Below, piece by piece: positions 23,043-64,000 of a DNA stretch of 64,000 bases. Source of the DNA: Takakia lepidozioides (lineage: Eukaryota; Plantae; Bryophyta); assembly GCA_030704615.1 (NCBI GenBank), contig CM060734.1, positions 10,230,001 through 10,294,000 of the forward strand. Direction: 5' to 3'. The notes beneath the pieces were generated by a model. The model had not been told where the DNA came from. It saw only the letters and a program-made list of their open reading frames with translations, and did not search any database. Position 1 is the stretch's first letter. Every line of letters begins with the position of its first letter. The translations under genes and the position numbers were made by a program.

Positions 23043-23044
23043 CT

Positions 23045-23056
23045 TGGTATCAGAGC
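23045..23056 (+). promoter_or_regulatory. Primer binding site for initiator tRNA-Met
   Basis: TGGTATCAGAGC, 2 nt after the 5' LTR. Confidence 0.92.
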
Positions 23057-23097
23057 TTAGAGTTCAGTACGCGATCGTCCTTGGGATTGGCCTCATC

Positions 23098-24096
23098 ATG
23101 GGGTCGGGCAAGCCGAAGCGAAAGCGGAACGGCCCAAAAGATGATGATTCCGGTGAGCCCGATGGGGGCGACGTGTCACCGAGGCGGCCGTTTGAGGAAG
23201 CGATTAATGTTTCCGAAAACGAGGCCGCTCAGGAGCGGGAGGAATCCGAGGAGTCGGAGCCCGAGGAATCTTTGAGAGCTCCGACAAACCAAGAGATGCC
23301 TCCCATGCCGGCAGCCTTTTGGGAAGGGTTGTTGGCGCAGTTTGGCGGGACGTTGAAAGACGTGTTGAAGGCGGCTAATGCCACTTCCACCAAGGCAAAG
23401 TTTAAGGTGAAGCCTAAGGAACCCGGCACCTTCGAGGGCGTTCGAAACCGGAAGGCACTCAACACCTGGCTCCTGGAGCTAGAGCAGTACTTCCGGGCGG
23501 CCAAGTTGAGTGACGAGGATCGGGTGGAAGTGGCTCCCACCTATTTGAGGGGCTATGCTCAACAATGGTGGCAGAAACGCCTTCACGACCGAGGCCCAAG
23601 CCCGGAAACCTTGAACTGGAGTGAGTTCAAGGAATTGATGAAGAGACAGTTTGTGCCCCTCAACGCATCCTGGCTTGCCCGGGACAAGATGAGGAATTTG
23701 AAGCAAACTGATGACATTCGGGGGTATGTCCAGGCTTTCAATGTGCTGTTGCTCGAAGTCGCGGACATGGCAGAACCAGAAATGGTCTTCAACTTTGTGG
23801 CGGGACTGGCCCCATGGGCTAGGCGGAAGTTGGAGGAGAAGCCACCCAAGACTTTGAACGAGGCAATTGAGAGAGCTGAATGTTTCTCGGATGTCCCTAG
23901 GGGTGAGAGACAAGGCCGTACGGAGCTGAACCACAAGAAGACCCGGCGGGAAGGTGACTCCTCCCGACCGGAAAAGAAGTGGGATAGGCCACGCGGCGAA
24001 AATGGCACGTGGAAATCGAAGGGAGGTCCTTCACACGTCAAGGCGGCACCCGGTGCTTCGAAAGGAAAAGCGGGTGGAGCGACTTATGGCGGATAG
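23098..24096 (+). CDS. gag: Gag (retrotransposon gag domain), ended by an in-frame TAG just before the zinc knuckle
   Basis: PGTFEG...WLLELEQYF...YLRGYAQQWW...NLKQTDDIRGYV. The same frame continues after the TAG into [14 protein letters not shown]. Confidence 0.88.
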   Translation: MGSGKPKRKRNGPKDDDSGEPDGGDVSPRRPFEEAINVSENEAAQEREESEESEPEESLRAPTNQEMPPMPAAFWEGLLAQFGGTLKDVLKAANATSTKAKFKVKPKEPGTFEGVRNRKALNTWLLELEQYFRAAKLSDEDRVEVAPTYLRGYAQQWWQKRLHDRGPSPETLNWSEFKELMKRQFVPLNASWLARDKMRNLKQTDDIRGYVQAFNVLLLEVADMAEPEMVFNFVAGLAPWARRKLEEKPPKTLNEAIERAECFSDVPRGERQGRTELNHKKTRREGDSSRPEKKWDRPRGENGTWKSKGGPSHVKAAPGASKGKAGGATYGG

Positions 24097-27000: not shown

Positions 27001-27659
27001 CGACGGGAGTTTCCCCTTTTGTGTTGGTCTATGGAAAAGCACCTCTGGTGCCGACAAGTTGGGCCGCCCAGGACGTTGAGGAACCAGCAGTAGCGGCGGT
27101 ACTGGAAGAACGCGAGCGTTTGTTGAAGCTCGCAAAGTACAACATTGCCAAAGCTAGGAAACGGTATGAAAGGCAGGCGAATCGGAAGCGGAGGGAAGTG
27201 AAGTTTGAGGCAGGCACAGAGGTCTGGTTGAACATCAAGAATTTTCGACTACCTCCGGAAATGAGTCCGAAGTTCGTACCTCCGTATGCGGGTCCCTTTC
27301 GCATTCGGAGGGTTATGAATGAGGATGTGTATGAATTGGAGCTGCCAGCAAACAGCAAGGTGCACCCAGTATTCCATGTCTCCCTTTTGAAGCCTTACTT
27401 CAAAGATGAAGCACGTCCGAATCGTCAGCAAGTGTTGCGTCCGCCACCTATGCTGTTGGATCATGAAAATGAACCCGAGTACGAGGTGGAGGCAATACTT
27501 AAGTCGAGGAGGTTCAAGAACCGAGAAACGGAGTATCTCGTCAAATGGAAGGGCTATCATCTTGTGGAGGCATCTTGGGTGCGTGCCTCAGAAATGGGAA
27601 ACGCATCCGAGGCAGTTGCAGCGTTCGAAGGGCGACCTCAAAAGCGGAAGAAGCGTTGA
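24097..27659 (+). CDS. pol: Zinc knuckle-protease-RT-RNase H-integrase-chromodomain polyprotein, with a 1-bp frameshift at ~25233
   Basis: Motifs [45 protein letters not shown]...CTTC, VSMDF, VSDRD, DGQTER, YAGPF, and chromodomain EYEVEAIL...YLVKWKGY...SW with terminal KRKKR. Confidence 0.95.
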
Positions 27660-28564
27660 TGGGGACATCAACCTTGGAGCGTGGGGGAGGAAATGCATGC
27701 TTAGCCCGGTTTAGCTAGCTCAGGAATCCGATTGCAAAAACTTGTATTGTACAAAAATTTGTGATAAAGGAAATGGGTTCCAAATATTGTGCGTCCTATT
27801 GTGTTTGGAATGGTGATGCATGGTGTGGTTGGCTGGTGTGTAGAATGCATGCTAGCTTACAAAAGTGGGAGAGGTAAATTGGGTTAATCGTGTGTTTGCG
27901 CAGTGCCGAAATCGGGTGACTCCCATCCAAGGGGCAAGGAAACTTGCGCCTTATTTGGGAGTTCAAGTGCTAGTGCGCACCTGGCGCGTGCGCGTACTAT
28001 AACTGCGCTACCGAGGGGTTTGCCTTGTAGTGCGGGCTAACGCGGAAGCTACGTGCTTCCGTTCACGTACTATAATCGTGTAGCCTCGGACGAAGTCGTA
28101 GTGCGGCTTCGGCGTGTTCCCGTACCTCAGGCCAGCATTCCAAGGCGGACCCAATTGTAGTGATTGGGGCGCACGGTTGGTTCAAGGTTATCTTCCTAGT
28201 CAAAGAGGGTTCCAGGTGAACCCTTGCTCAAGGTGATGCCAAAAGCGGCATCATGAGCGATCGCAAGCAATGTTGTTGCAGTAAGGCGATTCGATCCTCG
28301 GGGAGGATCGTTCCTTGGCCTTGAAGTAGGCCAAGAAGAGTGCACTGGGGGGAGCTGGAGAGGCCCCACCCTTGGCCGGGACTTGGAGGAAGTCGGCCGA
28401 ACTAGCTAGTGGAGAGTGGAGTCAAGTGTGGGGTTTGGTTCTTTGCCATGGGACGCCATGGTACGGAAACAACTCCTTGATGTGGGACGCCACAACTTGG
28501 ACGTTCGTTTCTACAAAATGGACAAAGTCGATGAGGACATCGACTCCATGTTGGTAGGGGTGTG

Positions 28565-29285
28565 TGTCGCGGCCCTTTGCCTTGAGGGCAGGGGGTCGGG
28601 ACACATGAGGGGCTGCCCCTGTGGTGGGGCAGCGGCAGCGATAGGTATGGGGGGCTGAAGCACCCTGAGTGCCCAAGGCACTCAAGGAGGCGGAGGCGCT
28701 CACTAGGTGGAGCCCCGCACACCGGGTTGCGGTGGAGGTGGCTCCACAAGGGGTGGTGGTAGCTTAGTGGGACTTAGTGGGGGTGGCATAGGACTCACCA
28801 TGGGGAGGAGACCTCGAGGTGGGAGTCGTGGGGAGTCTTGGGACTCATCACGGTCCATTGGGGCCGCGGTGAGTGGGCCAAGACTCACCGCGACTCACCA
28901 CCGGGAGTCGAGGGTTTTCGTGGTGGTTCGCCATAAAATGGCATGGCTGGTTATGAAACCCCCGCGGACAGCTACAGAAGTATATATAGGGAGTAGTAAC
29001 CCCGAGAACGGTGCAAGCCCGTTGGTGACCAAAAACTAGTGAGTAAGCGTGCGAGCCGGAAAGCGACCAAAGAGTGGGGAGCTGTTCCGGACTGCCATCT
29101 ACCAAAGGGAATTCTCCTAGTCCCAAATAGGTGGAGGGTTTAGAGGGAAGCGGAAGGGGACCGTTATGTCCCGGTGAGCAGCCGAAACTCCAAGTTGGCC
29201 TGGAGGCCAGGTTGGGAGTCAGGCGCGCGCATCAAAGCGAGTAACTATGACTTGAAGGGAGTTTACCGAACTGAGGTGTGCGACA
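28565..29285 (+). repeat. 3' LTR (721 bp)
   Basis: Preceded by a weak PPT (GGTAGGGGTGTG) and followed by the TSD CTACT. Confidence 0.95.
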
Positions 29286-40815: not shown

Positions 40816-42903
40816 CCTGAGGCGTCGCAGCCGCAGCAGGTGCGAGACAACGCAGCCCCGTTTTTACTGGGTAAATAAGGATTTCTACTGCGCAAGATGA
40901 AAAAAAAAATCACTTTACCCCTGGCGAAGCGAACGTGGGGTTCGCTTCGGGTTCGCTTCCCCACGTTCGCCGCGGTGACACGCCCTGCCAGGGCGAATTC
41001 GCCCCACTGACAGGCGAGTTCGCCACTTTTTGCGCTCATGTGCGCGGGCCTTGTGTTGGGCGTTGAGGTTGACGCTGCCCGACTACCCTCAAGGTTGATC
41101 TAGGGCCCATCGCTCACTCTTCGAGTTGGAGAATAAGAAAGCATTATGGCAAGTGATGGGAGTGCCAAGTACGAAGAAAAGGGGCAGAAAGTATGTAGCT
41201 GGATAGCACTGGTGTGTTTGCAGGGGCTGTGTGGTGCAGCTTTGGTGGCAGGCGTGAGGATTGTGCCTTCTATGATGGGCTTGCATCTCATTACCGAGAC
41301 TGTGAAAACCCTACAGATCACTCTGGTGCGACATCTGTCTGTATTCATCCCGGTTTTGTAAAGGTCTTCTATCGCGGGAAGACTTCTTATTGATGAGGAA
41401 GAAGTCAGCGAAGGAATTGGAGGAAGGCCCATGGGATGTTTCAAGAGCTGTATTTCCGTAGACATTTCTGGCTGCATTGAAATGAGGAATGTTTATAAGG
41501 AGCATGTCAGCCTTCTTCCCAGCTTATTACATGCAGCACGAAAAAATAGCTTCAGGACCGCGACTTTACTCGAGGGAAGAAGAACAGTGTGGAAATAGTA
41601 GAAAGATAATTTCATAACCTTCAAATACAATCTTTAGAAAAATGATAAGCAGGGTATTGCAAAACTCTAGGGCGACAAGGCTTCCGAATTACTGGATAAA
41701 CAGCTCCTCTAGCTCTATTGTTGTGGTTCCAAGGAGTGGTTGTATTAAGGAGAGTGACAACCTGGATCCAGATGTTGCCAAATATCGTGCAATAAGAATC
41801 CAGGTGTGCAGTAAGCTGTTTTGAGAATGAGTTTCCTGTGAAGGAGAGCTGTGCATACTGCCCTTTGGGAAGGATGCTGCTGCAAATGCTGGTTGACAAA
41901 GACAAGTCTTTGTCAGCAGAGCTGTAAGCATTGTGCTGGTTAATCACTTCCCACAAGATGGATTTATATATCTGGATGCTCAACAGTTTGGTCACCGGTG
42001 CATTGTGCAGGCTCTTGCTTTACCTGTTTTCCTGGCAACGTATGCCTCCATTGTGATGCTATCCTCCAAGCCTTCTTCAGTGAGTTGCTTTTACTTTCAA
42101 ATTTTGGGTATCATGCAAGATCTCCTGCCCTATTTGAGGATTGTTTCCTCTCTGTGTTTGCAAGCAGCCTTCTCTTTGACTGCTGTGGCCCCCTATGTTT
42201 GTCTGAACTCTGGAGTTGTCATTGGTTGTTAGGGTTTTCAATTCAAATGGTATCTTCGGTTTTGAGGGTTGTCAGCACAGCTTTGCACTCAATCAGTGTT
42301 GTGATGTCATTACCTATGACAGTAAGGGCAAGGGGTTTGGTGGTGCATGGCAGGTCTTGCAGGCTCTTGGAAATGGCCTTCTTAGCCTTCCTGTAGGTTG
42401 TTTCTGCACCTTGCTGTCAGTTTCAGAGTTGTTGTCTCACATATGTCTTTGCTGCATGTGAGATTCTGAGAACATTAGTATAACACAATCAACATCTAAT
42501 ATCTACCAGTCTGGAATCATAAATGACGGCTGATGAATAAATACTCGATAAGCTGTTGTGAAAATGTAAGCAATATTGAATCATTCATGGTTTTTGATGA
42601 TCGGTACAGTCTTCAAGTATATTGAAATTAATGGGGATGTCCAGCTATCGCCATCTTAGATGGAGAGTTCACAGCCATGGGCTTTCTGACTGCACTGGCT
42701 TGCATAACAGCCCAGGGAGGAGAGGTTTTTCTGGCATGTTTTCACACAGGAAGTAGACAGGCCGCTGAAGTTAGGTTTGTGATGAGTGCAGGAGCAGGGC
42801 TGGCAGTGCTTGTAGCATTTGCATTTGGTGCACCAATCTCTCTGCAGTAAGTTGTATCCTATGTCCTTTAACTTCTGGCTTATCCTCTCCCTCTTTCTCT
42901 CTC

Positions 42904-44976
42904 TTGGTCTATGCTCCCATTAGTTCTTCTGAGATTGTGGAAGCAATTGAACATTTACATGGATATAAAGCCGGTGGACCTGATGGTATTGTCAACGAGC
43001 TTATCAAGCACGGTGGCGATCCCATGATAGAGGCCCTAGTTCTCCTCTTTAACCTTATCTGGAAGACTGAAATGATCCCCTTTCGCTGGCGACAGGGGAT
43101 CATTGTCAATCTATACAAGAAGGGTGACAGAGAAGAACCGGGGAACTACCGTGGCATCACGCTCCTCAATGCTGTTGGCAAGACATTCTGCAGAGTTATA
43201 AGTACTCGTCTCGAGGTTGATCTGGAGTCTAGAGGTTGTTTCCACGAAGGCCAAGCTGGCTTTCGGCGAAACAGGGGCTGTGTGGATCATATCTTCACTC
43301 TAAGCCAGATTATCCAGGGAAGGAAAAAAGAAGGGAAACCCACTTATGTCTTTTTCCTGGATGTCAAAAAGGCTTATGACACAGTGTGGAGAGATGGCCT
43401 ATGGTTCCGCCTCTGGTCTTGTGGGATCAAGGGAAAGATGTGGAGAGTTGTCCACAACTTGTATGCTCACACCAAAAGCTGTGTCACTGTTAACGGACAG
43501 AAGTCCAACTTCTTTGACATAGACCAAGGTGTAGCTCAAGGATGTACTCTCTCCCCTCTGCTCTTCAATGTTTTCATCAATCAACTCCTCGAGGATGTGG
43601 AAAGTGAGGGATTTGGGTTAAGGGTGGGTGATACCACCATACCAGCCCTTATGTTTGCGGATGACTTCGCAGGCATAGGGGAGACTCCAACCAATCTCCA
43701 GGAGTTGATTGCGCAGAGATACTTTGATCTTTGGGGGCTAGAGGCTAATGTCAGCAAATGTGCAGTGGTAGCATTCAACGACAGAGGAGAGGGAGGAAGT
43801 GATCTTAAGTGGCAGTGGGGTAGCCAAGAGATCCCGGTCCTCCCTTCCTACACTTACCTGGGCGTTGAGTTCTCCTCCAATTGTAATTGGAATGCACATA
43901 TCCGGAATGTTGTTCAAACTGGCAAGGGCAAAGCTCTGGGGCTCACTAAATTTTTCCACTGCAGAGGGGTCAACTCTGAGGTTAAGAAAACCATGCTTTG
44001 TCGCGTTATTAGACCTGCCTTGGATTACGGATCTGCTATATGGGTTGATAACTCCAACCAGGCTAAGTCTCTAGAATCCATTCAAGTGGGGGTGCTTAAG
44101 GAGTGTATGTCAGCATGCTCCAAAACAGCCAATGTGGCTGTTCGGGGTGAGTTTGGCATTCCGTCCTTAAGCTCCCGACAAGATGAATTCGAGGTCAGAT
44201 GGTGGGGTCAGCTGCAACATATGCCCAACACCAGATATCCTAAGTTAATCGACTCTATATCTTGGAAACAGGACCGCCCTGTCAAACAGGCTAAGTCCTG
44301 GCAGAAGAGAGTAGAAGAGATCCTCAAGGACCTGGACCTGGATCCGCAAGTCTTGACCCTGCTGGATAAATCTGACTTAGAGGCTGTAGTGTCCTCAGCC
44401 ATGTCTGTTGCCATGAGATTGTCTGATGAAAATGAAGTTAGGCAGAAAACTTCCCTGAACTTGTTTTCAGTCTGTGACATGGGGGAGGACATCTTGGATG
44501 ACCTCAAGGGTCTAGACTGAAATTTAAACTCAGGGCAGGAAGCCTACCTTTGAACAGCAAACAGAAGCAGAGAGGAAAGGGAGAGTGCAATTGCCCGTTG
44601 TGTGGGCAATCTGAAGACAGTATTCATTTTCTGATACACTGTCCGGGGTTCTCTCACCAAAGAGACGCTCTCTTCAAATCTATTAAGGGAATTGTGCCTG
44701 TACCCCTGTTTACCAACTTTGAAAGTCTCGAGGCTGAGCCAAAAGCCCAGGCCCTCCTGAGGCCTAGTTTTTGGGCAAATCACACACAGCAGATTGATGC
44801 TTGTGTGAAGGGATTTCTAGAGGATATCTGGAAAACCTGGATTAATTCTTTATATGGAGGTAAGTCTTACTACCAACGTCAGCCCCTGACAGAGGTAGGT
44901 TCTGTCCCTTTTGTTCCCGCTCAAACTGGGCGTGGGGTAAATGGCCACAAGGCTACGGCAAACAACGTCTTATGAG

Positions 44977-49979: not shown

Positions 49980-52542
49980 CTTGAAGCCGGGAAAGTTTAT
50001 GTTTCCTGAAACTGCAAAGGAATGTGGATGTCAACTCAGAGAGAAAGAAGTACATTCGTCTTGAAAAGACGTGCGAAACTCTTTACGAATATCTTGAACA
50101 TAAGGAGAGTTTGAGGTGGGAGAGAGGAGGCCCGTCGAGTTTTCGACAATATGGCTGGACGAGATGTGGTTTCATGGAGTGCGATGATTGCAGGATATGC
50201 TCAGCAAGGGTGTGGTCAGGAGGCCTTGGAGACCTATGAGCAAATGATATGGGAAGGGTGGGTACCGGACAAAGTCACATTCACTTCCGTTCTCGATGCA
50301 TGTGCCAGCCTAGCCAACTTGGGAAAGGGCAAAAAGATCCATGCTGATATTATCAAAGACAGAATTGAGCCAAATATCGTCCTGGAAACTGCCCTTGCCA
50401 ACATGTATGCCAAATGTGGGAACATGACGGATGCGCATCTAGTGTTTGACAATATGGCTCAACAAAATGTGGTCTCATGGAGTGCGCAGGATATGCTCAG
50501 CTTGGATGTGGTAAAAAGGCTTTGGAGATCTATGAGCAAAAGATACAGAAAGGGGTTATGCCCAACCAGGTAACGTTTGTGTGTGTTTCAATGCATGTGC
50601 CAGCCTGGTGGCTGAACGAGATGCTCTCCTGGAGTGCAATGATTTCAGGATATGCCCAACATGGATGTGGTAGGGAGGCTTTAGAGACATATGAGCGAAT
50701 GATACGGGAAGGGGTGACACCCAACCAGGTCATTTTTGTTTATGTTTTCAACGCCTGTGCCAGCCTGGCAACCGTGGAAAATGGCACAGAAATCCATGCT
50801 GACATTATCAAAGCTGGAATTGAGCCAACAGTCACTTTGGAAAATACCCTTATTGACATGTATGCCAAATGCAGGGATATAAAGAATGTCTGGCTAGTGT
50901 TTGACAATATGGTTGAACGACATGTGGTCTCATGGAGTGCTATGATTGCAGGATATGCTCAACACGGGTGTGGTAGGGTGGCCCTGCAACTATTGGAACA
51001 AATGCAACAGGAAGGGTTGAAGCCGAATGGTATCACTTTTATATATGCTGTTAACACTGTATTCGTTAAAAGTGGACAATGGCTTGTTCACTTTTATTGT
51101 AGGAGAATTGAAATGGCGTATCTCCAATAAGAGGTTGTAGCCGAATGGTAAAATGATATTTGTTTGTGTCGACTTTGGCTAAAAGTTTTTTTTTTTTTTT
51201 CATTTGCAATAGAATCGTTGATGGTAGTCCTAAGTTTACATCAATACCTTATAACTAAGGTGCGAAGAGTTTTGTCATCACGGGCATGAAACATTGTAAA
51301 TTTCAAGTCTTTCAATATTTGAGGGTACTCTTTTATCCATACGTCAGACATTTATCTACATAATAACAATATAATATGTACATATATTGTTAATATATAT
51401 TTATGAAAATCATAAGGGAGAAACATCCATAATAGTATATCATGATGCATCCAGGAATTCCAACCATTTTTTATTTCATATATGACATGTCTGGTTTCCA
51501 TCAATCTATGAAGCAAGACGTTTGTTTTACACATAATACCATTACAATGATAAAATTTCATGACATCATCATGTATATATTGCACCGTATATTTATTTTG
51601 ATTGAATCCATTTCATATGTATATCCTTTTTATGGTATGGAGATTAGATTTCATACAAGAAAATATTTTTAGTTGTACCTTTATTTCTGTTCATAGACCT
51701 TCTAATATGATCATGTCCACTTTTCTACCATCCTGTCCACTTTTAACAAATACAGTGTTTGTTCTCTTTGCATGTAGTCATGTGGGACTAGTAGATGAAG
51801 GCAGTCATTACTTTGATTCTATAGTCAAGCTCATGGCCTGACTTCCACAAACCAACATTTTGGCTGCATGGTGGACCTTCTAGGCCGTGCAGGGCATGTG
51901 GATGAGGCATAGGACTTCATCAAGAAAATGCCAAGCGAAGTGGGGGACTTTGCTTGGTGCCTGCAGAATTGATGGGAATCTGGAGGTGGCAGAACGTGCA
52001 TCAATCTTCTTGAGTGGGATCTGCAGGATGCGGCAACGTATGTGCTTCTATGCAACCTCTATGCTGCGGCTGGCAGGTGGGACGATGCCGCAAAGGTGAG
52101 GAGGATGATGTGGGACAGAGGTATCAGTAAGGAGCCTGGTCGGTGCTGCATAGAGGTCTATAATCAGGTGCATATTTCGTTGTAGATGATAAATTGCATC
52201 CACGACTTGAGGAAATCCATGTTGAGCTGAAGAGATTGTCTTGGCAGATGAAGGAGGCGGGGTACGTGCCTGACACTCGATTCGTATTGCATGATGTGGA
52301 AGAGAAACAAAAGGATATTTCTCTTTGTCAACACAGCGAGAAGCTCGCCATTGCTCTTGGCCTGATTAGCATGTCCGCTGGGTCCCCTCTTCGTATCATC
52401 GAGAACCTTCGGGTGTGTGGTGACTGCCACACTGCCATCAAGTTCATCTCAAAGATTTCTGGGCGAGCAATTGTTGTACGGGAGGCCAACCGCTTTCACC
52501 ATTTCCAAGTTGGGGTTTGTTCTTGTGGGCGATTACTGGTGA
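49980..52542 (+). pseudogene. PLS-class PPR-E-DYW RNA editing factor pseudogene
   Basis: Repeated DVVSWSAMIAGYAQ.G.G.EAL, TF..VL.AC and L..MYAKCG motifs. PG box KEPGRCCIEV. DYW domain HSEKLA...NLRVCGDCH...CSCG(fs)DYW. Many frameshifts and stops, and a TIR insertion. Confidence 0.92.
51053..51759. mobile_element. AT-rich TIR element with 4-bp TSD, inserted in the PPR gene
   Basis: 26-bp TIR AACACTGTATT(C/T)GTTAAAAGTGGACA, with TGTT on both sides. The PPR frame (ITFI..VL.ACSH) resumes after it. Confidence 0.85.
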
Positions 52543-53999
52543 AAAGCTGGACATGTATGGAGAAGAGTGTGTACCAATGTCTATACTGTACTTTCTGGTC
52601 AGCTGTCCGTGATGACAACAAGTCAATCATAATTTGAGCTGAAGCAGTCACAGATAGCCTTATTACAGATGGGTTGTCATAAAGAGTATCAGGTATGAAT
52701 ATGTCCCTGAACTGTTGGAGGTTGAGCTCCCAGTTTTGCACTTCCAAGACCCATTTGTAGTTGTGGGTACCTGTTTCTACCTTGCTTCTTGCCTGCGATT
52801 ACGAGGAGTCGGACCAGTGTTACAAAATTGAAAGTTTCAATCTCACCAAGTCGTCCAGATGGTAGTCCAATGGTAAGCTAGATGATCTTTCCAAGAGGCG
52901 ACAAGACTTCTTGGTGTGCATGGGAGCTAGTTACTGTAAAACAGCTACTATATTAGATTGTGCAACTTCGAACAAATTGCTACGTAACCATGTAGATGTC
53001 AAAGTAAATTCTATCAAACCTACATTTTCATTCCTCGTTGGTAATGTGCTTACAAAGAGTACGTAAGAGGTCTCTCTCCTCTCGCTCTAGGACAGGAGAA
53101 TAGGGAGTCCAACTAGGTGATGGGTGTACCAACAACGAGAATTTAACTATGAAAAAGTTTGAAGCAGGGTAGAGGTTCAGGGCTGTTAACATGAAGCTCG
53201 AAGAGCACAAGGGATGGAATTCAGTTGATGTCAGCAGGTAAGATGTCCCTCTAGGGGCTCTCTGTAGTTATCACTGCCATAGTTAGTTTACTGTCAGAAA
53301 TACAGTAGAAACACAGTAGAAACACAATAGTGGTGTTGCAGTTTCACAATTACCTTCCTATCTAATACATTGTCTACCACATGGGCATGGGTGGGTTGAT
53401 TGCAGTCGATATATCCAGATGCAAGCTTTGGTGGTGGCAATTCAATTGCTGAGAAATAGAGAGATGGACAGCATGTGCCATATGTGGCTTGGGATTTAGT
53501 ATTGTTGAACAAAGTGCAACTTGCACTTGCTGAAATTGAGGCATGGCTAGAAAGATATGTGGCATATTGGTGCGGCATAGCTTGTGGGAATGCAGGCAAG
53601 GACATTACAAAGTTCATGGTTACTGCGGTTGCCATAGATATGAGTGATGCAGGTTGAATATGCTTGAATCTGCTTCAGGAATCGCAAAACTGCTGAGTTT
53701 TTCGGAGAGCTCTCACCCCCTTGGATGCCCATGGATGTTTCAAGCTCGAGTAGCATCTCTTGGGCTCATTTGTAAGATTTGAGGTGAGAGTCTGACGCCC
53801 AACTGAACTACCTGATTGCGGTTGATAATGTCAAACACCTATTGCTTTGCATCTGCTGGGACCATAGGGCCCTCCATCAAATGGGAATGTTCAACAACAA
53901 GGTTTGATGCAAAGCACTAGTACTCCTCCGTAAAGGAACTTGTCAAGGTTTGATGCTGTTTGAATTTCTGGCACTAAGGTCAAGCACGGAGCATGGAAT

Positions 54000-56753
54000 A
54001 GCGGTGGCAAAAGTTCTTTAAAGATCCTTCACGACAGTGGGACAACCCCGATGTCAAGGTGCGGCTTTCTTAATTTATGATCTGAAGGAGTTGTTGTGCA
54101 AAAGTGGCTCTTCCTGTAGGTATCATAGGCCATGAAAATACATTGTCAAAGGGTTTTTTTGAGAAGCAGGATGAAAAAGCCTGGATCAAGCCAATATCTA
54201 CAAAATTCAGCTGGCAAAGCATGGATTTCTCATGGACTTCAACACATGTGATGTACGATTCCCACTTACAGAGCCATCCGCAATGTCAACAGTCAACACC
54301 CACATAGTAACATTCACCCTGTTTATCAGAATCGGCCCTAAATTTTCATGTTGAATTCTGCAAGTTAGCTGGTTGAGTGAACCTTTGATAATTTGGAGTG
54401 ACTTTGACATGATACTGCCAATGTGACAACAAGGAAGTATCCAGAAACAGGTAACAGAGACGAGGAGAAGCTGTGGAATGAATACTTTTCTGACCCCAGT
54501 CAATGGTGGGACAATTATGCAAAAAAATGAATGTTTGTTGGATTACAAAGAGTAGCAGATGCAATTGAGCGTAGGAACTAGTGTGATAAGTTGAGTTGGG
54601 TGTTTCCTAGAACAAATCTAGGCTGTCATTGTCAGTTGATAGCAGCAAGCAAGGATGTATGTATGATTTGTGCAGAGGCATGGATAGCTGAAGAAGCAGA
54701 GATAGTGTGTGGGTGGACAGATTCATCCAAGAGGGCCAGACTTCAAGCTTCAGATGACCTATGATTCCATGTGGATCAATAGCTACAGTAAACCTGCATG
54801 GGTAGATGGTCAACTAAAGGCAGCAGCTACAGCGGCACAGTTGATAGAATCAGGCATCTAAACCATGACCACAACTTCTGAAAAAGGATCAAGAGAGGGA
54901 GTCCACAATGCCTCTTCTGGCACTTCTGGGCATGTGAAGATACTTTGTGCGGCAGACAGACTGACAGAAGCTCTACAGACTCTAAACCAAGGAGGCATTT
55001 CAGCAGATTCAGATACGTATGTCTATCTCTTGCTTAAGTGCATCAAGATGGAAGGTCTGGAAGCTGGAAAGCAGGTGCACACTCACATTATCCAAAGTGG
55101 ATTCACGCCAAATATTTTTCTACTCAACACCCTTGTCAACATGTATGTTAACTGCGGGAGCATCATGGATGCTCACCAAGTGTTCAACAGAATGCCTCAA
55201 CGATCTTTAATCACGTGGAATATAATGTTGGCAGGATTTACCAAGCATGGGAGGGGTAGGATTAATGCTTTGGGCAAATGCTGCGTGAAGGGGTGAAGCC
55301 CAACCACATCACGTTTGTTTGCATTTGCAAATTCGTATGCAAGCCTGGCAGCTCTGGAAAAGGGCAAAGAGGTCGATGGCGACATTGTCAGAGCTGCAAT
55401 TGTACCAAATGTCATTCTGTACAATACCCTCGTGGACATGTATGAAGGGAGTGTTCGACAGTATGGCTGAACGAGATATGGTGTTGTGGAGTGCGATGAT
55501 TGCAAGATATGCACAGCAAGGGCGCGGAAGCTGAAGGAGCAGGGAACACTGAACACTGAACACTGCTCTGGTGGACATGTATGCCAAATTTGGGAGCATT
55601 GAGGATGCGAAAGGAGTGTTCAACACTATGGCTGAACGAGATGTGGTGTCGTGGAACGCGATGCTTGCAGAGTATGTACATCAGGGGCGCGGGGTGGAGG
55701 CTTTGGAGACCTATGAGCAAATGATGGGGGAAGGGGTGAAGCCTGACCATATCACATTTGTGTGCGTTTGCAGTGCGTGTGCAAGCAGGTGGCAGCCCTG
55801 GAAAAAGGCAAAGAGATGCATGGTTGCATCGCCAAAGCTGGAATTGTACCAGATGTGATTCTGAACAATACCCTCGTGGACATGTATGCCAAATGTGGGA
55901 GCATTGAGGATGCGGTGGGAGTTGTTCAACAATATGGCTAAACGAGATTTGGTATCGTGGAACGCGATGCTTGCAGGATCTGCACAACAGGGGGGGGGGG
56001 GACGGAGGCCTTGGAAACCTATGAGCAAATGATGGGGGAAGGGGTGAAGTGCCACCACATCACGTTTGTGTGCGTTTGTAATGTTTGTGCAAGCCTGGCA
56101 GCCCTGGAAAAGGGCAAAGAGGTCCATGGTAACATCATCAAAGCTGGAATTGTACCACGTCATTCTGGACAATGCCCTGATGGACATGTATGCGAAATGT
56201 GGGTGCATTGAGGATGCAAAGGGAGTATTTGACAATATGGCTGAACGAAATGTGATGTCATGGAACGCGATAATCGCAGGATATGCCCAGCATGGTTGTC
56301 ATACCGAGGTCCTGCAACTATTTGAAGGAATGGAAAAGAACGGCTTGAAGCCGGACAGTATCACCTTTATATGTGTTCTCCCTGCATGCAGCCACACTGG
56401 CCTACTGAATGAAGGAAGACGCTACTTCGATTCCCTGAGTCAAGATCATGGTGTCACTCTGACAGTAAAGCATTTTGGCTGCATGGTGGACCTTCTTGGA
56501 CGTGCGGGACAATTGGATGAGGCAGTGGACCTGATTAATAAAATGCCAATCAATCCAGATGTTGTAGTGTGGAGGCCTTGCTTGGTGCTTGCAGAATCCA
56601 TGACAATGTGGAGATGACTAAACGTGCGGCAACATCTATCCTCAAGTGAGATGAACAGGATGTCGCGACTTATGTGTTGCTATCAAACATCTATGATACA
56701 CAACGTCACTGCTGCATTGAGGTTTACGACAGGGTGCACACCTTCGTTGTAGA
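54000..56753 (+). pseudogene. PLS-class PPR pseudogene with N-terminal OSB-type PDF motifs, truncated in the E domain by an LTR
   Basis: RWQKFFKDPSRQWDN (~54002), EEKLWNEYFSDPSQWWDN (~54463) and HPRGPDFK...MWI...KPAWVDGQL (54724-54817). The last is in frame with PPR ORF 54865 across one TAA. PPR repeats run to HFGCMVDLLGRAG, then CIEV..RVHTFVV up to 56753. Confidence 0.8.
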
Positions 56754-57048
56754 TGCCGTGCGCATACATATCGCTACACAACTACATCGTTGTCCAAAAC
56801 CACACAACACATGTGCACACCAAACACTAGTCTCTCACTAGTCTACCACTAGTGCACCATTAGGCTGCCACTAGACAACCACTAGCCACCACTAGTGCAG
56901 CCACTAGTCCACCACTAGTCTGTCACTAGCCACCACTAGTGCAACCACTAGTCCATCATTAGGTTGCCACTAGCCACCACTAGTGCAGCCACTAGTCCAC
57001 CACTAGTCTGCCACTAGCCACCACTAGTGCAGCCACTAGTCCATCACA
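56754..57048 (-). repeat. Extra copy of the Gypsy-DNMT LTR (CCACTAG-rich)
   Basis: Homologous to 57369-57604 with more CCACTAG units. TG...CA ends. No TSD. Confidence 0.85.
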
Positions 57049-57049
57049 A

Positions 57050-57366
57050 TGATAAGGAAAAGAATGATACAAGCATACAAGCTCTCTCAAACTCACACAC
57101 TTGCACATGAAAACATCACTCATATATTAAGTCGAGCCAAGTGCATCCCACGCCATGGGGAATCCACACTACGGCGCCATAGCTAGACGCGGTGAGGCTC
57201 AACTCGAGAAAGATGAGCCCACCGCGATCTGCCGTGAAGATAACAACGCCAGGTGCCCAAACATATATTGGTCCCTGGATTGACACTTGGGTCAATCCCA
57301 AATGTCAATATATAAAAGCTAGTTATTTCCTAGTTAACTTCATACTAGTCGTAAAATAACTTGACA
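57050..57366 (-). mobile_element. Probable unrelated LTR between the two CCACTAG LTRs
   Basis: TGATAAG...CTTGACA imperfect terminal inverted ends. No coding motifs. Confidence 0.45.
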
Positions 57367-57368
57367 GC

Positions 57369-57604
57369 TGTCATGCGCATACATATCGCTACACAACTAC
57401 ATCATTGTCCAAAACCACACAACATATGTGCACACCAAACACTAGTCTATCACTAGTCCATCACTAGTGCACCACTAGGTTGCCACTAGACAACCACTAG
57501 CCACCACTAGTGCAACCACTAGTCCACCACTAGTCTGCCACCAGCCACTAGTCCATCATTAGGCTGCCACTAGCCACCACTAGTGCAGCCACTAGTCCAT
57601 CACA
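57369..57604 (-). repeat. 3' LTR (236 bp) of the Gypsy-DNMT-PHD element
   Basis: Minus strand reads PPT AGGGGGACGAT (57605-57615), then TGTGA...TGACA. Confidence 0.85.
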
Positions 57605-57844
57605 ATCGTCCCCCTAGCTAGCGCTTAGGTCCCTCTAAATCCAGGTAGCCACAAGATGTGATAGTGGCCATAGCCTCACTAAGTCCTCCACCACTGTCCC
57701 TACTACACTCAAACTCGATAGATCAAGAGGCCGGGTACAAGAGTTGCCCCATCGTTAGTCGCCGTCTTGCAACTTGTGAACTTGAGCCTGAGATCTCGGG
57801 TATTGACTCCTATGAGCTTGGCATCCCAGTCATATCCACTGTCA

Positions 57845-60820
57845 CTATCCCAAGTAGTGTGGACATAACCAATCTCCATCAGGAACCCTCTCAAGAGGTA
57901 GTGTCAAGCATCCCATGTGCCAACCTCTTGAGCATCGATCATACACCAGCATAGTGGCGGCACCACGAGCATGCCCACATAACATGCAATGCAACCCTGG
58001 AGATACCACTGCAAGGGTGGGATCCATCCTCCCATCCACATATGGAAGGTGACATGGCGCACAATTACGCACATGGTCCTTCCATACCATGCCATCTCGA
58101 CCCTCCAGAATCAACACTCCTGAAGGCAACACCTCCCTGACCCTTAGAATCACACGTCCTGCTGTGACATCCAAGGTCGTAGGCGTTGTCTGCTGCAGAT
58201 ACACATAGTCCACAGGGTGGAAACGCCGAACACCTGGCCAATATCCCCCTCCACGTATAGTGGCATACCTCAACGTGTCTCGGTGTTGGGCAATAGCAAG
58301 ATTCACAAAAGCCATAGGCATGACTCTCTGGAACAACTCTGCCCGCTGGGCACATGCTTGTGTCCACACATCCGAATCATCAAGGTTGAGGACTACTGCA
58401 GCCTCCCTGCAAATAGACGCAGGCAAATCTGGCTCTCGGCCAAAGAAAAGGAAATATGGTGAGAAGGAGGCAAGTGATGTTTGCTTGCTAAACGTGTAGC
58501 CCATGGCTAGCCAAGGTACCTGAAGATCCCAATCTCCTAGGTGTCCCTTTTGCAAGCCATACTTGCGCAAACCCCTCTTCACCGTCTGCACCACTCTCTC
58601 TGCCAAGCCATCGGCCTCAGGATGATCCCAAGAAGTGGTACGGTGGTCTATCAAGGCTTTATCACACAAAGCCTGAAACTCCCCCAAGAATTCTCTCCCT
58701 TGGTCCGTGAGTACCTCAGCTGGAGCACCGAATCGGCTAAGCACACGATCCAGGAATGCATACGCAGCCCCCTCACTAGCCTTGTCAGCCAATGGAACCA
58801 ACTCAATCCACTTGGAGAAGTGCTCCACCATCACCAACACATATCTGTGGTGGCGCATCGTCAATGGCAACGGCCCCGCGAAGTCAAGACTCCACCTGTA
58901 GCCCAATCCCATGATGGGTAATGGATGCAATTGTGGTGTAGGGGCGTTGAATGAAGCACGCACCCTGGCACACACCATGCACCTAGCCACGAACTGTTGC
59001 ACCTCTGTGTATATACCACGCCACCAATACTGCCCCTGCAGTAAACTATGAGTGCGTCGCACTCCAAAATGCCCCAACTCCTCATGGGCATGCCTCACTA
59101 ACCGTGCACGCTGTGTTGGGTGAAGCACGATCCTCACCCGACCATCCTCCCACACTCGAAGCAGGTGTATCCCCTCCCACTTGAACCTCTTGGCTCGTTG
59201 CAGGATCCGATCCCTCTCCTTGGCAGTCACACTAGCTGTCGTGTCTCCAGTGCGGATGTAGTCCAACACAACCGAATCCTCATGTATATCTCTGGCACCA
59301 CCTGGCTCATCACTAGCCTCAGGGTCCTCAGACACTCCATCTACAGTCATCCCTATTGTAGGTCCAATCTGACCTCCCGATGCCAAGATACACAAAAAGG
59401 CAGATGCATGCCATCCCGGCACCATCTCCTCGTCTGTCTCACCATGCCACCGAGCTCCAGTGTCATCATGCTGGCTCGTGCATGGATTGCGACTTAATCC
59501 ATCCGCATCCCTATTGACCAAACCCGGTCGATGCACAACCTGAAAGTCATACTCTTGGAGTATAAGTGCCCACCGTGCAAGCTTCCCCGTAAGCTTGTCT
59601 GACTCCATCAACCACTTGAGTGGTTGGTGATCCGTGACAAGGGTGAAGAGATTGCTGTATAGATAGCACCTGAAATGTGCCACGGCCCACATTACAGCTA
59701 AGCACTCCCCTTCATATAAGCTATACTTAGACTCTACAGCGTTGTTCAAGCGGCTAGCATAAGCCACTATGAACTCTCTTCCCTCATCATCCACATGTGT
59801 GAGCACCGCTCCAAGCCCCAGCATGCTCCAATCTGTATGCACCTGAAAGGGACGCCCCCTGATAGGTCGTCTCAAGATCGGCGCCGAGGTCAACCTCGCC
59901 TTGAGCTCTTGAAAAGTTCGCTCTTGCTCATCTTCCCACTGCCAATCCTGGTCTACCTTGGTCAGCTTCGTTAGAGCCTTTGCAATAGCACTAAATCCCT
60001 TGACAAACCGTCTATAGTAGTTTGCCAACCCCATGAAAGCTCGAACTCGGCTCACATCCGTGGGACGTGGAATCTGTGCAATGGCCTCTACCTTAGTCTG
60101 CTGGATCCCCAATCCTCCAGGATATATCATGTGGCCCAGATACTCAATCTGGTTGTGGAAGAACTTGCATTTCCCCGGATGTAATTTCAATCCGTGCGCT
60201 CTCAAGCGCTCAAACACCACCTGAAGGTGTCTCTCGTGCTCCTCCGCCGTAGCACTAAAGATGATGATGTCATCTATGTAGCACCGAGCAAAGTCTATCC
60301 CTGCTAGAATCATGTCTATAACTCTCTGGAACTCTGCAGGAGCGTTCTTAAGCCCGCATGGTAAGAACCGCCACTGATATAGGCAATCCTTCCCATGCTC
60401 ATTGATACCCCAGAATGTCGTCTTCTGCTTGTCCGCCTCCTTGATCGGCAACTGGTGATATCCGGACCGCAAGTCTAGAGTGCTAAAGACCTTGGCATGC
60501 CCAATGGCATCAAAGATCTCCTCCGGTGTGGGCATGGCATACTTAACGGACTTGGTCTGACAATTTACAGGCCGGTAATCACCGCACATACGTCTCTCCG
60601 TCCAATTGCCATAGACATCCTTCTTGGCTGGCATCACCGTGGCTGAAGCATACTCTGCACTAGAGAGCTCCACCAAACCAGCCTCCCAGAGATCTTGAGT
60701 CCTCATCTGAATCAAAGACCTCTCCATGTCACTGTATCTATAGGGTCTCCGAAAGATTGGCGTGTCCGTGGCCAACTCAATACGAATCTCCTGACCCTTC
60801 AGTGCTCCCAAATCCTTCAA
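57845..60820 (-). CDS. pol: RT-RNase H-integrase-PHD finger part of pol
   Basis: Motifs [36 protein letters not shown]...CMVC, SLDFAG, LTDQGREF and GLAER. Terminal PHD-like CMLC...MLV(Y)DRCSRGWHMGCL...VPDGDWLCPH(Y). Confidence 0.95.
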   Translation of the reverse strand: MKDLGALKGQEIRIELATDTPIFRRPYRYSDMERSLIQMRTQDLWEAGLVELSSAEYASATVMPAKKDVYGNWTERRMCGDYRPVNCQTKSVKYAMPTPEEIFDAIGHAKVFSTLDLRSGYHQLPIKEADKQKTTFWGINEHGKDCLYQWRFLPCGLKNAPAEFQRVIDMILAGIDFARCYIDDIIIFSATAEEHERHLQVVFERLRAHGLKLHPGKCKFFHNQIEYLGHMIYPGGLGIQQTKVEAIAQIPRPTDVSRVRAFMGLANYYRRFVKGFSAIAKALTKLTKVDQDWQWEDEQERTFQELKARLTSAPILRRPIRGRPFQVHTDWSMLGLGAVLTHVDDEGREFIVAYASRLNNAVESKYSLYEGECLAVMWAVAHFRCYLYSNLFTLVTDHQPLKWLMESDKLTGKLARWALILQEYDFQVVHRPGLVNRDADGLSRNPCTSQHDDTGARWHGETDEEMVPGWHASAFLCILASGGQIGPTIGMTVDGVSEDPEASDEPGGARDIHEDSVVLDYIRTGDTTASVTAKERDRILQRAKRFKWEGIHLLRVWEDGRVRIVLHPTQRARLVRHAHEELGHFGVRRTHSLLQGQYWWRGIYTEVQQFVARCMVCARVRASFNAPTPQLHPLPIMGLGYRWSLDFAGPLPLTMRHHRYVLVMVEHFSKWIELVPLADKASEGAAYAFLDRVLSRFGAPAEVLTDQGREFLGEFQALCDKALIDHRTTSWDHPEADGLAERVVQTVKRGLRKYGLQKGHLGDWDLQVPWLAMGYTFSKQTSLASFSPYFLFFGREPDLPASICREAAVVLNLDDSDVWTQACAQRAELFQRVMPMAFVNLAIAQHRDTLRYATIRGGGYWPGVRRFHPVDYVYLQQTTPTTLDVTAGRVILRVREVLPSGVLILEGRDGMVWKDHVRNCAPCHLPYVDGRMDPTLAVVSPGLHCMLCGHARGAATMLVYDRCSRGWHMGCLTLPLERVPDGDWLCPHYLG

Positions 60821-61269
60821 ACTGAAGGCAAAGCAATTCCTGTAAGCCCTCAGGAACCGCCGTATATGTCGTCTCTCTCCTCCAGTGACAATGGGTCCAA
60901 TGTCAGGCTCCCAATTGTCCTCTGTAACTGCAACCTTAAGTCCAGCAGACTTAGAGGTAGAGGACGCGTCCCGTGGTTGCTATGCCGCAACCTCTTGAGC
61001 AGTACTCCCTGCCTGCTCAGTCAATGACAAGGCCTCATCCTGCCCCATCATCTCATCATTGAGGACCTCTTCAACCCGAGAAGAATCCCCAACCTCATCC
61101 ATCACAGCCGCCTTGGCTGCCAACTCCCTCTGAACCTCGAGCACCTCCCACGTGTGCCATGGATGTCTACACCTTGTGGTCCTCACCGGCTCGCCCCCAC
61201 TCACTGCTTGTACCGTCTCGGTAGGCAGAGAGACCGTCAAGGGAAGTGCACTCCGCATTCTATGTTGCT

Positions 61270-62230
61270 CAGCCATAGCCAAGCTGATAATCCAGGTCAA
61301 GCAATTTAGATCCATTGCTTGCCCCAACACCTGACGACGTGATGCCTCAGAAAGATAAGGCGCCGCCGTGGTCCCAATGGAAAAACCCATAGCCCGCTCT
61401 CGCTCGTCGGCATTAGGCTCCACTAACTGCTGCAACTGAGCATCCCACAGGAGGCCAAGTCCACTATCCCGGAAAGCATGCGATCCTGGGAAGCTGAGCA
61501 GTGTAGTAGTGTTGCTCGTGGTTGACCCACCTTGTTGACCACTGCCAAAGGCGAACGGTCATCGTGTCTCACACGCTGAGACTGCCTCCCTGTGTCCAAG
61601 ATGCTATCAACTGTGAGGTGTGTTGGCCACTGCATCCCATCAAATGCACGCTTGAGCAGTGCGGGTGGCATTAAGTTAGTCCACCATAGCCGTAGTCAAT
61701 GAGCCCGTGACCCCACTGCAGCTGCATCCAGCAACAATGCTGAACCAAGCCACGACCGGACTTGATGCACCCTGGCCATCACCCTGGCCCGAGAATCGCC
61801 CATCAGTGGCACATTCTCCAAGATGTATGCTGGAGATACAGCTTGATGAAGCTGTAAGTGGCGTAAAACCCGCACCATCTCTCAAAACAGACCCGACCTC
61901 GAGTCTCACAATCCATTGCCATGCCCGGCTGATGAATGCCTTTGGCAGGGCCAACCTGCCACTACCAAATCAATGGAGCCAACCCGCTCCAAATCCCGTG
62001 CCCCCAGCAACGAAATGTCTGCTGGCAAGGCCTGCTGATATCCACAAACTGCAGACACTGGCAACAACTCAAGGGTACTGCTGCACCAACTGAGCAACAT
62101 GACGGAGTGAGACGCGTCGTGCGGTCTCATCCCTCTCCACATACAAGTAACGCCGTACTCATACACCTGCCTGTAGAACAGCAACCAACCCGGTGCTGAT
62201 CCCGCCAAACAAGTCGGCAAATGCCTTCAT
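61270..62230 (-). pseudogene. C5-cytosine DNA methyltransferase domain (DNMT3-like, non-permuted) within pol
   Basis: Motif I DLFGGI (62198-62215), II YVERD, III ADI, IV DLVVAGWPCQ (PC within 61942-61956), V RSGLF, VI YILENV (61810-61818), VIII H*LRLWWTN (61675-61701), IX ERERAMGF (~61382-61405), X RRQVLGQAM (61313-61339). Four TGA stops and 2-3 frameshifts. Confidence 0.9.
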
Positions 62231-62612: not shown

Positions 62613-62978
62613 CTACCATCCAGGCCTATAGGAAGCTGACTCCTCCCAAAAATCCAGGGTGAAGCCCATGGGGTACAACATTGCCCCACCAACAAGGACA
62701 TCGTACGAGACCGCGTCTGTCACAATGGCCTTGGCTCTCATCACTGAGCCATCTGTAGGATGATCCGGCTGTAATCTGATAGCCAACTCACGCCGTGTCA
62801 TGCCCCGAGCCTGCTCTGATCCTCCCAGAGATATCTGTATCTGGAAAGGGCACGGCTCCATATCCGCCTCCGTGAGGCCCAAGCCTGCAATAGCAGCTCT
62901 GCCCAGCATCAATGGCTGAGCTCCCGAGTCCAACAAGACTCGCAGTGGCCGGTACCTCTTGCTTGTCGGTCCACTCAA
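62613..62978 (-). CDS. Retropepsin aspartic protease
   Basis: VLLDSGAQ catalytic motif and downstream YDVLVGG. Confidence 0.85.
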   Translation of the reverse strand: MSGPTSKRYRPLRVLLDSGAQPLMLGRAAIAGLGLTEADMEPCPFQIQISLGGSEQARGMTRRELAIRLQPDHPTDGSVMRAKAIVTDAVSYDVLVGGAMLYPMGFTLDFWEESASYRPGW

Positions 62979-62993
62979 ACAGAAAATGTCATC

Positions 62994-64000
62994 CTAGTTG
63001 TCTAACATGACAACTTCAGGTGTCACCATGGCGCGCTCAATGGCTGGCCTAGCTGACAGCTCCATCAACCTGGCAGCTGCAGCTTGCCATGGCGCCGTCG
63101 TGGCAGTCTTGACCCTCACATCCGAGGATCCCTCCGGCACTACACCTCCCACTATCTCCGCAGAAGATGAAGTAACCTCCCCACTCTCACAGAGTGTAGC
63201 TGCCAGCCTGAACACCTCAGCTGGTCTTACCCCCGACGTCGCAATCATGGTAGTCGAGAACAATGGAGCCTGGCACACAGCTGTGGCCGCCCCCAGCAGC
63301 ACACTAGCTGCCGTAGCCTTGGCAACACTAGGTAGTGGTGCTGCCCGTGTAGCTCTCCCCAATGGCATAGTAACCTCCGCCTCGGTAACAGTAGGGCGAG
63401 AACTAGGTGCCATGGACGGCGTCGACACTGTCTCCGCCAATGTGAATGACTGAGGAAGCCTGGCCTGACGGCTTGCCTCCCCACGCTGTGGATCCAACTC
63501 CACCTCCACACCCCGTGGCTCAGGAACTCGTGCCGCTCCTCGAGTCACTGCCGCAGCTGACTCCACTTGCACTAGTGGTAGTGGTGCCCCGCTCATAGTG
63601 GTAGTGGTAGTGCTGCTTGACACTAGTGGTAGTGGTGCCCCACCCATAGTGGTAGTGGTAGTGGCACCCCTCACTAGTGGTAGTGCTACCCCGCACATGA
63701 ATCCCATGCCTCCCATGTCTCCTCCCTCAGGAGCAGGAGGTGGACCATCTGGCCTTAGAGCCGGTACCACCTGAGCTGTGGCCATGGCAGTGAGCCTCTG
63801 CTCTAGCTGCTGAAGCCGGTTGGCCATGCCTTGGTCACCACCCTGATCTCCGCGTCCTTGGCCATGTTGAGCTTGCCCTTGGCCTGCACCTCGTCCGTTC
63901 TGGGCTGCTCCACCTCGCCCCCGGCCACCATTGTTCCCTTGGAACTGGCCTGGGCGCAACTCAGGATGCAAACCATAGCACTGGGCTTCTCCATGCCCGT
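62994..64000 (-). CDS. gag: Gag C-terminal and linker region
   Basis: End of a zinc knuckle (GHGEAQC..LHP) at the window edge, an RG/GQ-rich segment, and the repeated peptide TTTTM(G/S)GAPLPLV. Confidence 0.6.
   Translation of the reverse strand, partial: GHGEAQCYGLHPELRPGQFQGNNGGRGRGGAAQNGRGAGQGQAQHGQGRGDQGGDQGMANRLQQLEQRLTAMATAQVVPALRPDGPPPAPEGGDMGGMGFMCGVALPLVRGATTTTTMGGAPLPLVSSSTTTTTMSGAPLPLVQVESAAAVTRGAARVPEPRGVEVELDPQRGEASRQARLPQSFTLAETVSTPSMAPSSRPTVTEAEVTMPLGRATRAAPLPSVAKATAASVLLGAATAVCQAPLFSTTMIATSGVRPAEVFRLAATLCESGEVTSSSAEIVGGVVPEGSSDVRVKTATTAPWQAAAARLMELSARPAIERAMVTPEVVMLDN

Follow-up and report, generated by a model that had tools for sequence, protein, structure and literature searches.

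What a chromatin reader might do at the end of a retrotransposon integrase is the question raised by a decayed Gypsy element of the bryophyte Takakia lepidozioides. The element lies on the minus strand of a 64,000-nucleotide stretch (contig CM060734.1 of assembly GCA_030704615.1, positions 10,230,001 to 10,294,000; hereafter the window), and its domain order is Gag, protease (PR) and DNA methyltransferase (DNMT), then a stop codon, then reverse transcriptase (RT), RNase H (RH), integrase (IN) and PHD finger. A first-pass annotation had proposed that the PHD reads histone H3 unmethylated at lysine 4 (H3K4me0), steers integration away from active promoters and is convergently paired with the DNMT3-like enzyme of the same element. 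Comparison with relatives leads us to lean towards a different view, in which the PHD would be an H3-tail tether borne by the integrase, independent of the DNMT, that would avoid H3K4me3 moderately at most.

The PHD was placed by Pfam, by matches in the Protein Data Bank (PDB) and by column counts across relatives. It occupies positions 57854-57988 (minus strand), amino acids (aa) 998-1042 of a 1044-codon RT-RH-IN-PHD frame (ORF2, 57845-60979, minus strand) that is open in the window copy and ends in CMLC-x8-MLVYDRC-SRGW-H-MG-C...VPDGDWLCPHYLG and its stop codon. In the Pfam scan of this frame, PF00628 cleared its 24-bit cut-off with 27.7 bits (E = 2.7e-6, aa 998-1041), the last domain behind RT, RNase H, the integrase zinc-binding domain and the integrase core. 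At E ≤ 0.01 the window PHD matched 65 PDB sequences; all 60 among the matches listed were PHD-bearing chromatin proteins, with CHD4, KDM5A PHD1, ATXR5, PHF21A and KDM5B PHD1 at the top. Six of the eight C4HC3 zinc ligands are kept, and the third (aa 1013, 57941-57943) and eighth (aa 1042, 57854-57856) are Tyr, the two Cys-to-Tyr changes that the first-pass annotation had read. The Gly that it saw in place of a cage Trp, two residues before the zinc-binding His, is also there (aa 1019, 57923-57925). The Arg2-binding Asp lies at 57938-57940, and the Pro and Trp of the Ala1 pocket at 57881-57883 and 57869-57871. An AlphaFold2 model built from 54 sequences had a pLDDT of 75-90 over the PHD blocks and contained the expected hairpin; a Foldseek search with a 427-aa model returned only integrases among the matches listed and was uninformative on the PHD.

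Besides two zinc ligands, the window PHD lacks a conserved Pro (codon at 57900) that is common to 173 of 208 relatives. In contigs from the same organism (two runs, one sample), a Cys codon at 57942 (ligand 3) made up 99% of the summed depth and a Pro codon at 57900 made up 99.8%. Because these contigs mostly carry the Cys and Pro codons, the damage to ligand 3 and to the conserved Pro is private to the window copy. A stretch of 501 bases was matched by 3,694 contigs of one run, a figure that is not a copy number; the pile-up points to a repeat family. The damage fits the general decay of this copy, whose DNMT (61289-62215, minus strand) is broken by four stops within aligned stretches and two frameshifts, its motif I, PC and ENV motifs still being legible. 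The window PHD is thus a genuine but broken domain of a dead element copy.

The window element appears to belong to the Gypsy-DNMT3 lineage, which was described from Klebsormidium, as a member from land plants. The relatives that bear a name belong to Calypogeia, Marchantia, Riccia, Sphagnum, Klebsormidium and Closterium, and RT-RH trees (57 selected sequences by fast search with SH-aLRT; FastTree on 152) group the window element in one clade with Klebsormidium KFL_009030040 (P0042; SH-aLRT 99.6), the deeper branch order within it not being resolved by these trees and the chromovirus of the same window falling outside it. The prevalence of the PHD was estimated with queries that do not contain it, an RT-RH search and a search with integrase-core patterns. 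Among the 120 proteins listed in the RT-RH search, 43 extend at least 55 aa past the integrase C-terminal domain; a PHD is present in 42 of them and a diverged finger in the 43rd. This filter leaves out Closterium proteins that lack a PHD. Eight such proteins stop after the integrase, and three of these carry the DNMT in the same frame. The integrase-core patterns found 80 loci, and 56 of the 57 assessable ones have the PHD. The PHD is the norm in this lineage, to which the published Klebsormidium Gypsy-DNMT3 belongs, and no peculiarity of the window element.

Columns were counted over the 208 of 292 proteins that reach the PHD region, 17 close relatives and 191 distant ones. All eight zinc ligands are present in 191 of the 208 and in 17/17 of the close clade; 11 proteins, found among P0209-P0224, P0183 and P0263, have His at ligand 8 (C4HC2H), and Tyr stands at neither ligand 3 nor ligand 8 in any of the 208. 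The first-pass annotation had allowed that the family might lack the ligands, and it does not. Relatives that range from metagenomes of the green lineage to liverworts and mosses, with integrase identities of 40-80%, keep the ligands. Across four loci (L042 was left out, a frameshift having broken its alignment), the proportion of nonsynonymous differences in the PHD (pN, 0.25-0.30) is below that of synonymous ones (pS, 0.54-0.60), by a smaller gap than in the integrase core. It could be argued that the PHD is a captured host fragment riding as a functionless passenger, given that the window copy has lost two ligands and the conserved Pro and that one algal sub-lineage has lost the finger altogether. 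However, the intact ligand sets largely refute this already, pN is below pS, and the damage seen here is that of general decay; we regard a passenger as highly improbable.

A chromodomain was looked for downstream of the PHD and none was seen, the close relatives ending within about 15 aa of the last Cys. Some other proteins depart from this layout. P0181 has a chromodomain after its PHD and P0132 a Tudor domain. P0033, P0035, P0058, P0076, P0122, P0125, P0140 and P0154 continue for 300-550 aa beyond the PHD without a Pfam match, with S-adenosylmethionine (SAM)-methyltransferase-like motifs discernible by eye; these extensions of distant relatives are possibly the adenine methyltransferase of DAM-LTRs. 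In L061 (222-1928) the PHD stands between RNase H and integrase, the order of Gypsy-7a, and L010 has a second PHD match (2946-3086), upstream of the protease.

Which ligand the finger may hold was approached through its pocket residues. In ING2-type cages, an aromatic residue directly precedes the first Cys, a position that is aromatic in few relatives (F in 3, Y in 1 and W in 1 of 208). The Trp two residues before the zinc His, described as the mark of PHDs that read methylated Lys4 (PMC4225485, PMC5415848), occurs in none of the 208 (Gly in 176, Ala in 20), and the cage-side Met position is Met in 172. The window copy aligns without gaps to KDM5B PHD1. By this alignment and the published numbering, the Ala1-pocket residues L325, P347, G349 and W351 of KDM5B correspond to L1011, P1033, G1035 and W1037, and its Arg2-binding D328 to D1014; all five are reported to be required for H3 binding (PMC4225485). 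Of the 208 relatives, 180 combine the pocket with the Asp, as does the window copy.

The part of the first-pass claim that concerns Lys4 itself fared less well. No relative has the Trp cage and the nearest solved structures are cage-less, as an H3K4me0-type reader would have it. However, KDM5B D308, which holds Lys4, corresponds to Pro994 in the window copy, and E321 to Ala1007. An Asp or Glu two to four residues before the first Cys, the expected Lys4 anchor, is present in 118 of 191 distant relatives but in only 5 of 17 close ones. For an acidic patch preceding the third Cys, the counts are 147 of 191 against 3 of 17; the window copy has neither. These losses tell against the tether as well: in KDM5 PHD1, removal of residues of the D308/E321 type is reported to lower affinity about 6- to 12-fold (PMC4225485, 10.1101/715474), and because the equivalents of residues so costly to lose are gone, H3 binding by the close clade may be weak. 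In KDM5A, these acidic residues count more for the unmethylated than for the trimethylated peptide (10.1101/715474). The distant members thus look like K4me0 readers, whereas the window sub-lineage looks like a binder of the H3 N-terminus in which discrimination at Lys4 is blunted and affinity may be lower. An H3-tail tether seems better supported than a K4me0 sensor, because the window copy, like 12 of its 17 closest relatives, lacks the acidic grips on Lys4.

The same columns bear on whether the finger reads the H3 tail at all. Its partner might instead be a chromatin factor of the host or some other histone surface, or it might serve as a structural zinc module on the integrase C-terminal domain. 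An intact relative finds its best PDB matches in the tandem PHDs of KMT2C and KMT2D and in WSTF, which weighs against an H3 tether. PHDs of KMT2C and KMT2D bind partners other than H3, and the finger too may have a non-histone partner. In addition, Cys976, just ahead of the finger, is invariant in all 208 finger-bearing relatives, 177 of which have His as the next residue. This hints at packing or an additional bound metal. The close clade also shows an eroded acidic surface. Nevertheless, an H3-like N-terminal ligand is the simplest explanation for the joint retention of the Ala1 pocket and the Arg2 Asp, and the finger would be dispensable for the integrase fold because Closterium integrases exist without it. 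We therefore judge a role outside the H3 tail unlikely.

We then considered the proposed partnership with the methyltransferase. That the enzyme is DNMT3-like was borne out: an intact homolog, P0294, matches DNMT3A best in the PDB (E = 2.7e-7), followed by DNMT3B and DNMT3C with bacterial enzymes far behind, and the catalytic motifs are intact in P0296 and P0299. A DNMT is present in 29 of 31 assessable loci, one of the two lacking it (L031) covering the RT only partly. Its position varies, some branches having it before the RT and others between RNase H and integrase, and it is missing from P0036, P0158, P0161 and L036, which do have a PHD. In the proteins mapped the two domains are never adjacent, and in the window element about 1,100 codons and a conserved in-frame stop separate them. 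The Pfam scan of the window element gave no ADD family at E ≤ 1, only the PHD. Reader and writer are long-standing companions that can come apart, and a pairing in cis like that of the ADD domain is unlikely because the PHD sits on the integrase, in a separate frame behind the stop.

A strict H3K4me0 sensor coupled to the DNMT, which would steer integration off promoters and bring the packaged methyltransferase to the insertion by the logic of ADD-DNMT3, can draw on a DNMT3-like enzyme accompanying the PHD through most of the lineage, on both domain labels running through the well-supported clade and on the Lys4 anchors and acidic patch of the distant members. We nonetheless consider it improbable: the anchors are absent from the window copy and rare in the close clade, the domains lie apart, in separate frames here, and each is found alone. 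Moreover, KnitGypsy-Dnmt3, the Klebsormidium element, showed no activity in yeast, a result that its authors call inconclusive (PMC5890265).

The separating stop is itself a feature of the window sub-lineage. It lies about 60 codons before the RT and in the same reading frame; in the window, the candidate readthrough site reads GCA-TAG-CAA-CCA (60974-60985, minus strand; stop at 60980-60982). Nine sequences were taken as members of the close clade, and seven of them have the context GCR-stop-CAA (the window site, L001:8152, L004:6940, L042:8149, L045:8149, L010:7282 and L044:1944); the other two have stop-stop and Tyr-CAA (L024). The seven span three subfamilies with otherwise dissimilar linkers. 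Among 663 decay stops in the same loci, none has this context and 14 are followed by CAA; an origin of the stop by random decay was rejected on this comparison. A DNMT tail was found in 34 proteins. Six of them stop 94-100 aa past motif X, and a further three, from Marchantia, share the same end sequence. Ends at 96-100 aa past motif X are seen in proteins of Marchantia, Calypogeia and Sphagnum, and Marchantia P0296 is a whole Gag-PR-DNMT protein that ends at the conserved stop; the rest are truncated, run into the RT without a linker or belong to a subfamily without a fixed stop.

UAG-CAR-YYA is the readthrough signal of tobacco mosaic virus (TMV), at which Tyr is inserted in plants (PMC2754532). 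Programmed readthrough is probably the explanation here, judging from the context, and would yield far more DNMT than integrase-PHD, with protease cleavage parting the two. Three observations weigh against it: a single subfamily accounts for four of the seven sequences with the stop; CAR-YYA is exact at only three of the seven sites, the sixth base being off consensus at the other four; and the DNMT reads on into the RT with no intervening stop in P0193, P0196, P0207, P0224, Klebsormidium P0042 and L055. Internal initiation past the stop is less likely because the window copy and L001 have no Met near it, and splicing is another possible route. The gene models P0003, P0189, P0190, P0296, P0297, P0293 and P0295 of Marchantia, Sphagnum and Calypogeia are pieces of this element family; they are labelled hypothetical, PHD-type or DNA methyltransferase, and some skip the stop-bearing linker.

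In the tether that we favour, the PHD of intact relatives would bind the free N-terminus of H3 and fasten the integrase to nucleosomes, holding Ala1-Arg2-Thr3 in the manner of the KDM5 PHD1, BAZ2 or UHRF1 fingers. Occasional readthrough of the stop would give a long polyprotein, from which the protease would cut integrase-PHD free of the DNMT. H3K4me3 would not attract the finger and would probably weaken its binding, though by less than is the case for classic K4me0 readers, since the window sub-lineage has mostly lost the acidic Lys4 anchors. The outcome would be nucleosome docking, at most moderately biased away from active promoters. The conserved stop predicts a large excess of methyltransferase over integrase, which would point to methylation of the particle or cDNA and not to a one-to-one partner of the integrase. 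A bolder scheme may also be drawn for land-plant Gypsy-DNMT3 elements, in which a TMV-type leaky stop gives active DNMT3 at the level of Gag but only a few percent of integrase-PHD, the cDNA or the landing site is methylated by the particle itself and the PHD picks H3K4-unmethylated nucleosomes, a version of the ADD-DNMT3 logic in trans; we hold it to be quite doubtful.

The remaining parts of the element are all on the minus strand. Gag, of which the C-terminal part is present (62997-64000; homologs P0296 and P0299), runs out of the window, leaving the 5' end of the element outside. The aspartyl protease (62616-62993) has a DSG motif and a weak Pfam match, and RT and RNase H span 59540-60802. 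The integrase (58040-59128) consists of an HHCC domain, a DDE core and a beta-rich C-terminal domain closing with a conserved Cys-His pair (aa 976-977). Cys973 of the same segment (aa 973-977, 58049-58063) is present in 125 of 208 relatives, and the PHD-less Closterium tails lack Cys976; Cys973, Cys976 and His977 are a possible extra metal site joining integrase and PHD. A polypurine-tract-like stretch (57605-57618, from the sequence) lies ahead of terminal repeat B1 (57369-57604), which is followed by repeat A (57049-57366) and by B2 (56754-57048), the 3' end of the element; B2 is 89% identical to B1 over 245 aligned bases. The full layout A-coding-B-A-B was found in L004, L042 and L043, three of nine loci scanned. 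The window shows the 3' B-A-B, and from the layout of those three loci the 5' copy of A is expected outside it. L004 and L042 have 4-bp target duplications, which fit a DDE integrase. The B1/A junction, TGACA-GC-TGTCA (window 57357-57378, minus strand; L004:10340-10360), consists of the element's 3' and 5' ends with two bases between; it is like a built-in circle junction.

Elsewhere in the window, the 3' end of the element adjoins the second of two decayed pentatricopeptide repeat (PPR) arrays (50115-52637 and 54862-56700, plus strand), the first of which closes with a DYW-type tail. A 581-codon frame (42775-44520, plus strand) looks by eye like a non-LTR (long terminal repeat) reverse transcriptase. 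The window also holds a young chromovirus (22320-29285, plus strand) with LTRs 99.7% identical and a 5-bp target duplication; its chromodomain (44 bits in Pfam, a Tyr-Trp-Tyr cage by eye) contrasts with the finger of the PHD element.

Retrotransposon PHDs have been presumed to guide insertion for twenty years, and we found no published binding test. The present lineage supplies intact natural PHDs and a tractable host, since Marchantia carries the family, its annotated hypothetical genes including ones for complete Gag-PR-DNMT proteins (P0296, with 18 member sequences). It also calls for caution, as some bryophyte DNMT3-like and PHD gene models are transposon pieces. A separate observation concerns 27 contigs of a viral collection (L081-L107): the histone H3 N-termini that they encode are near-canonical, and several have an insert following Lys27. 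Retrotransposon PHDs and, from a 2026 preprint, LTR elements with both reader and writer are already known. The PHD of Gypsy-DNMT3, its bryophyte spread and the stop after the DNMT were not found in our literature search, outside which lie figures, Repbase, Craig's thesis and preprint supplements, nor in the parts of PMC11982613 and PMC11244446 that it covered.

The closest known system is KnitGypsy-Dnmt3, a Gypsy element whose Pol has an intronless DNMT3-like domain ahead of the RT and whose repeats follow the same DIRS-like A-coding-B-A-B order (PMC5890265). It differs in coming from an alga and in having the DNMT inside the Pol frame, whereas in the window sub-lineage a stop intervenes; because DNMT and RT share a reading frame despite the stop, this would be a variant of Gypsy-DNMT3 and not another family. 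The text and supplements of that paper, figures apart, do not mention a PHD. Gypsy-7a_cRei is likewise an LTR retrotransposon that carries a PHD, for which a part in guiding or softening insertion has been proposed, but its legend puts the PHD between RNase H and integrase and lists no DNMT (PMC9940879). It provides the sole published hint of targeting that we found, intergenic insertion at 2.6 times chance; the caveat of its authors, that selection against genic insertions may be the cause, tells against a guiding role (PMC9940879). PHDs in retrotransposons have been called widespread (PMC6673714), and they are described as common in Chlamydomonas elements (PMC8557442). One of these, the Gypsy element REM1, is cited by other papers (as Perez-Alegre 2005) as an LTR retrotransposon with a PHD. 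In REM1, the finger is said to lie in a separate antisense frame.

Chromoviruses, as described by Neumann et al. 2019 (PMC6317226), also have a chromatin reader at the integrase C-terminus, and as the first-pass annotation recognized, the PHD sits where they have the chromodomain; the chromovirus in the window allows direct comparison. The PHD element has no chromodomain in Pfam and its RT falls apart from that chromovirus; chromoviruses of the cage-bearing type are confined to plants without seeds (PMC6317226). The window's cage-bearing chromovirus and the closest relatives of the PHD element point to a host among non-seed land plants. EpiLTRs combine a reader and a DNA-methyl writer in one LTR element, but the reader is a chromodomain, the writers are DAM and a DNMT4-related enzyme, the hosts are Euglena and Cymbomonas and the main text contains no PHD (bioRxiv 10.64898/2026.05.21.726589). 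The readthrough candidate resembles the TMV signal in its stop, CAA and pyrimidine-led codon, and L024 has a Tyr codon at the site; it differs in what it would join, Gag-PR-DNMT to RT-IN (PMC2754532). The finger shares the Ala1 pocket, the Arg2 Asp and the missing cage Trp with KDM5A/B PHD1, BAZ2A/B, BHC80, ATXR5 and UHRF1 (PMC4225485, PMC5415848, 10.1101/715474), but the N-terminal Lys4-binding Asp and acidic wall of the KDM5A/B PHD1 type are missing from the window copy and most close relatives. Finally, the ADD domain of animal DNMT3 lies directly ahead of the catalytic domain, whereas the window PHD lies downstream of its DNMT, beyond the stop, the RT and the RNase H.

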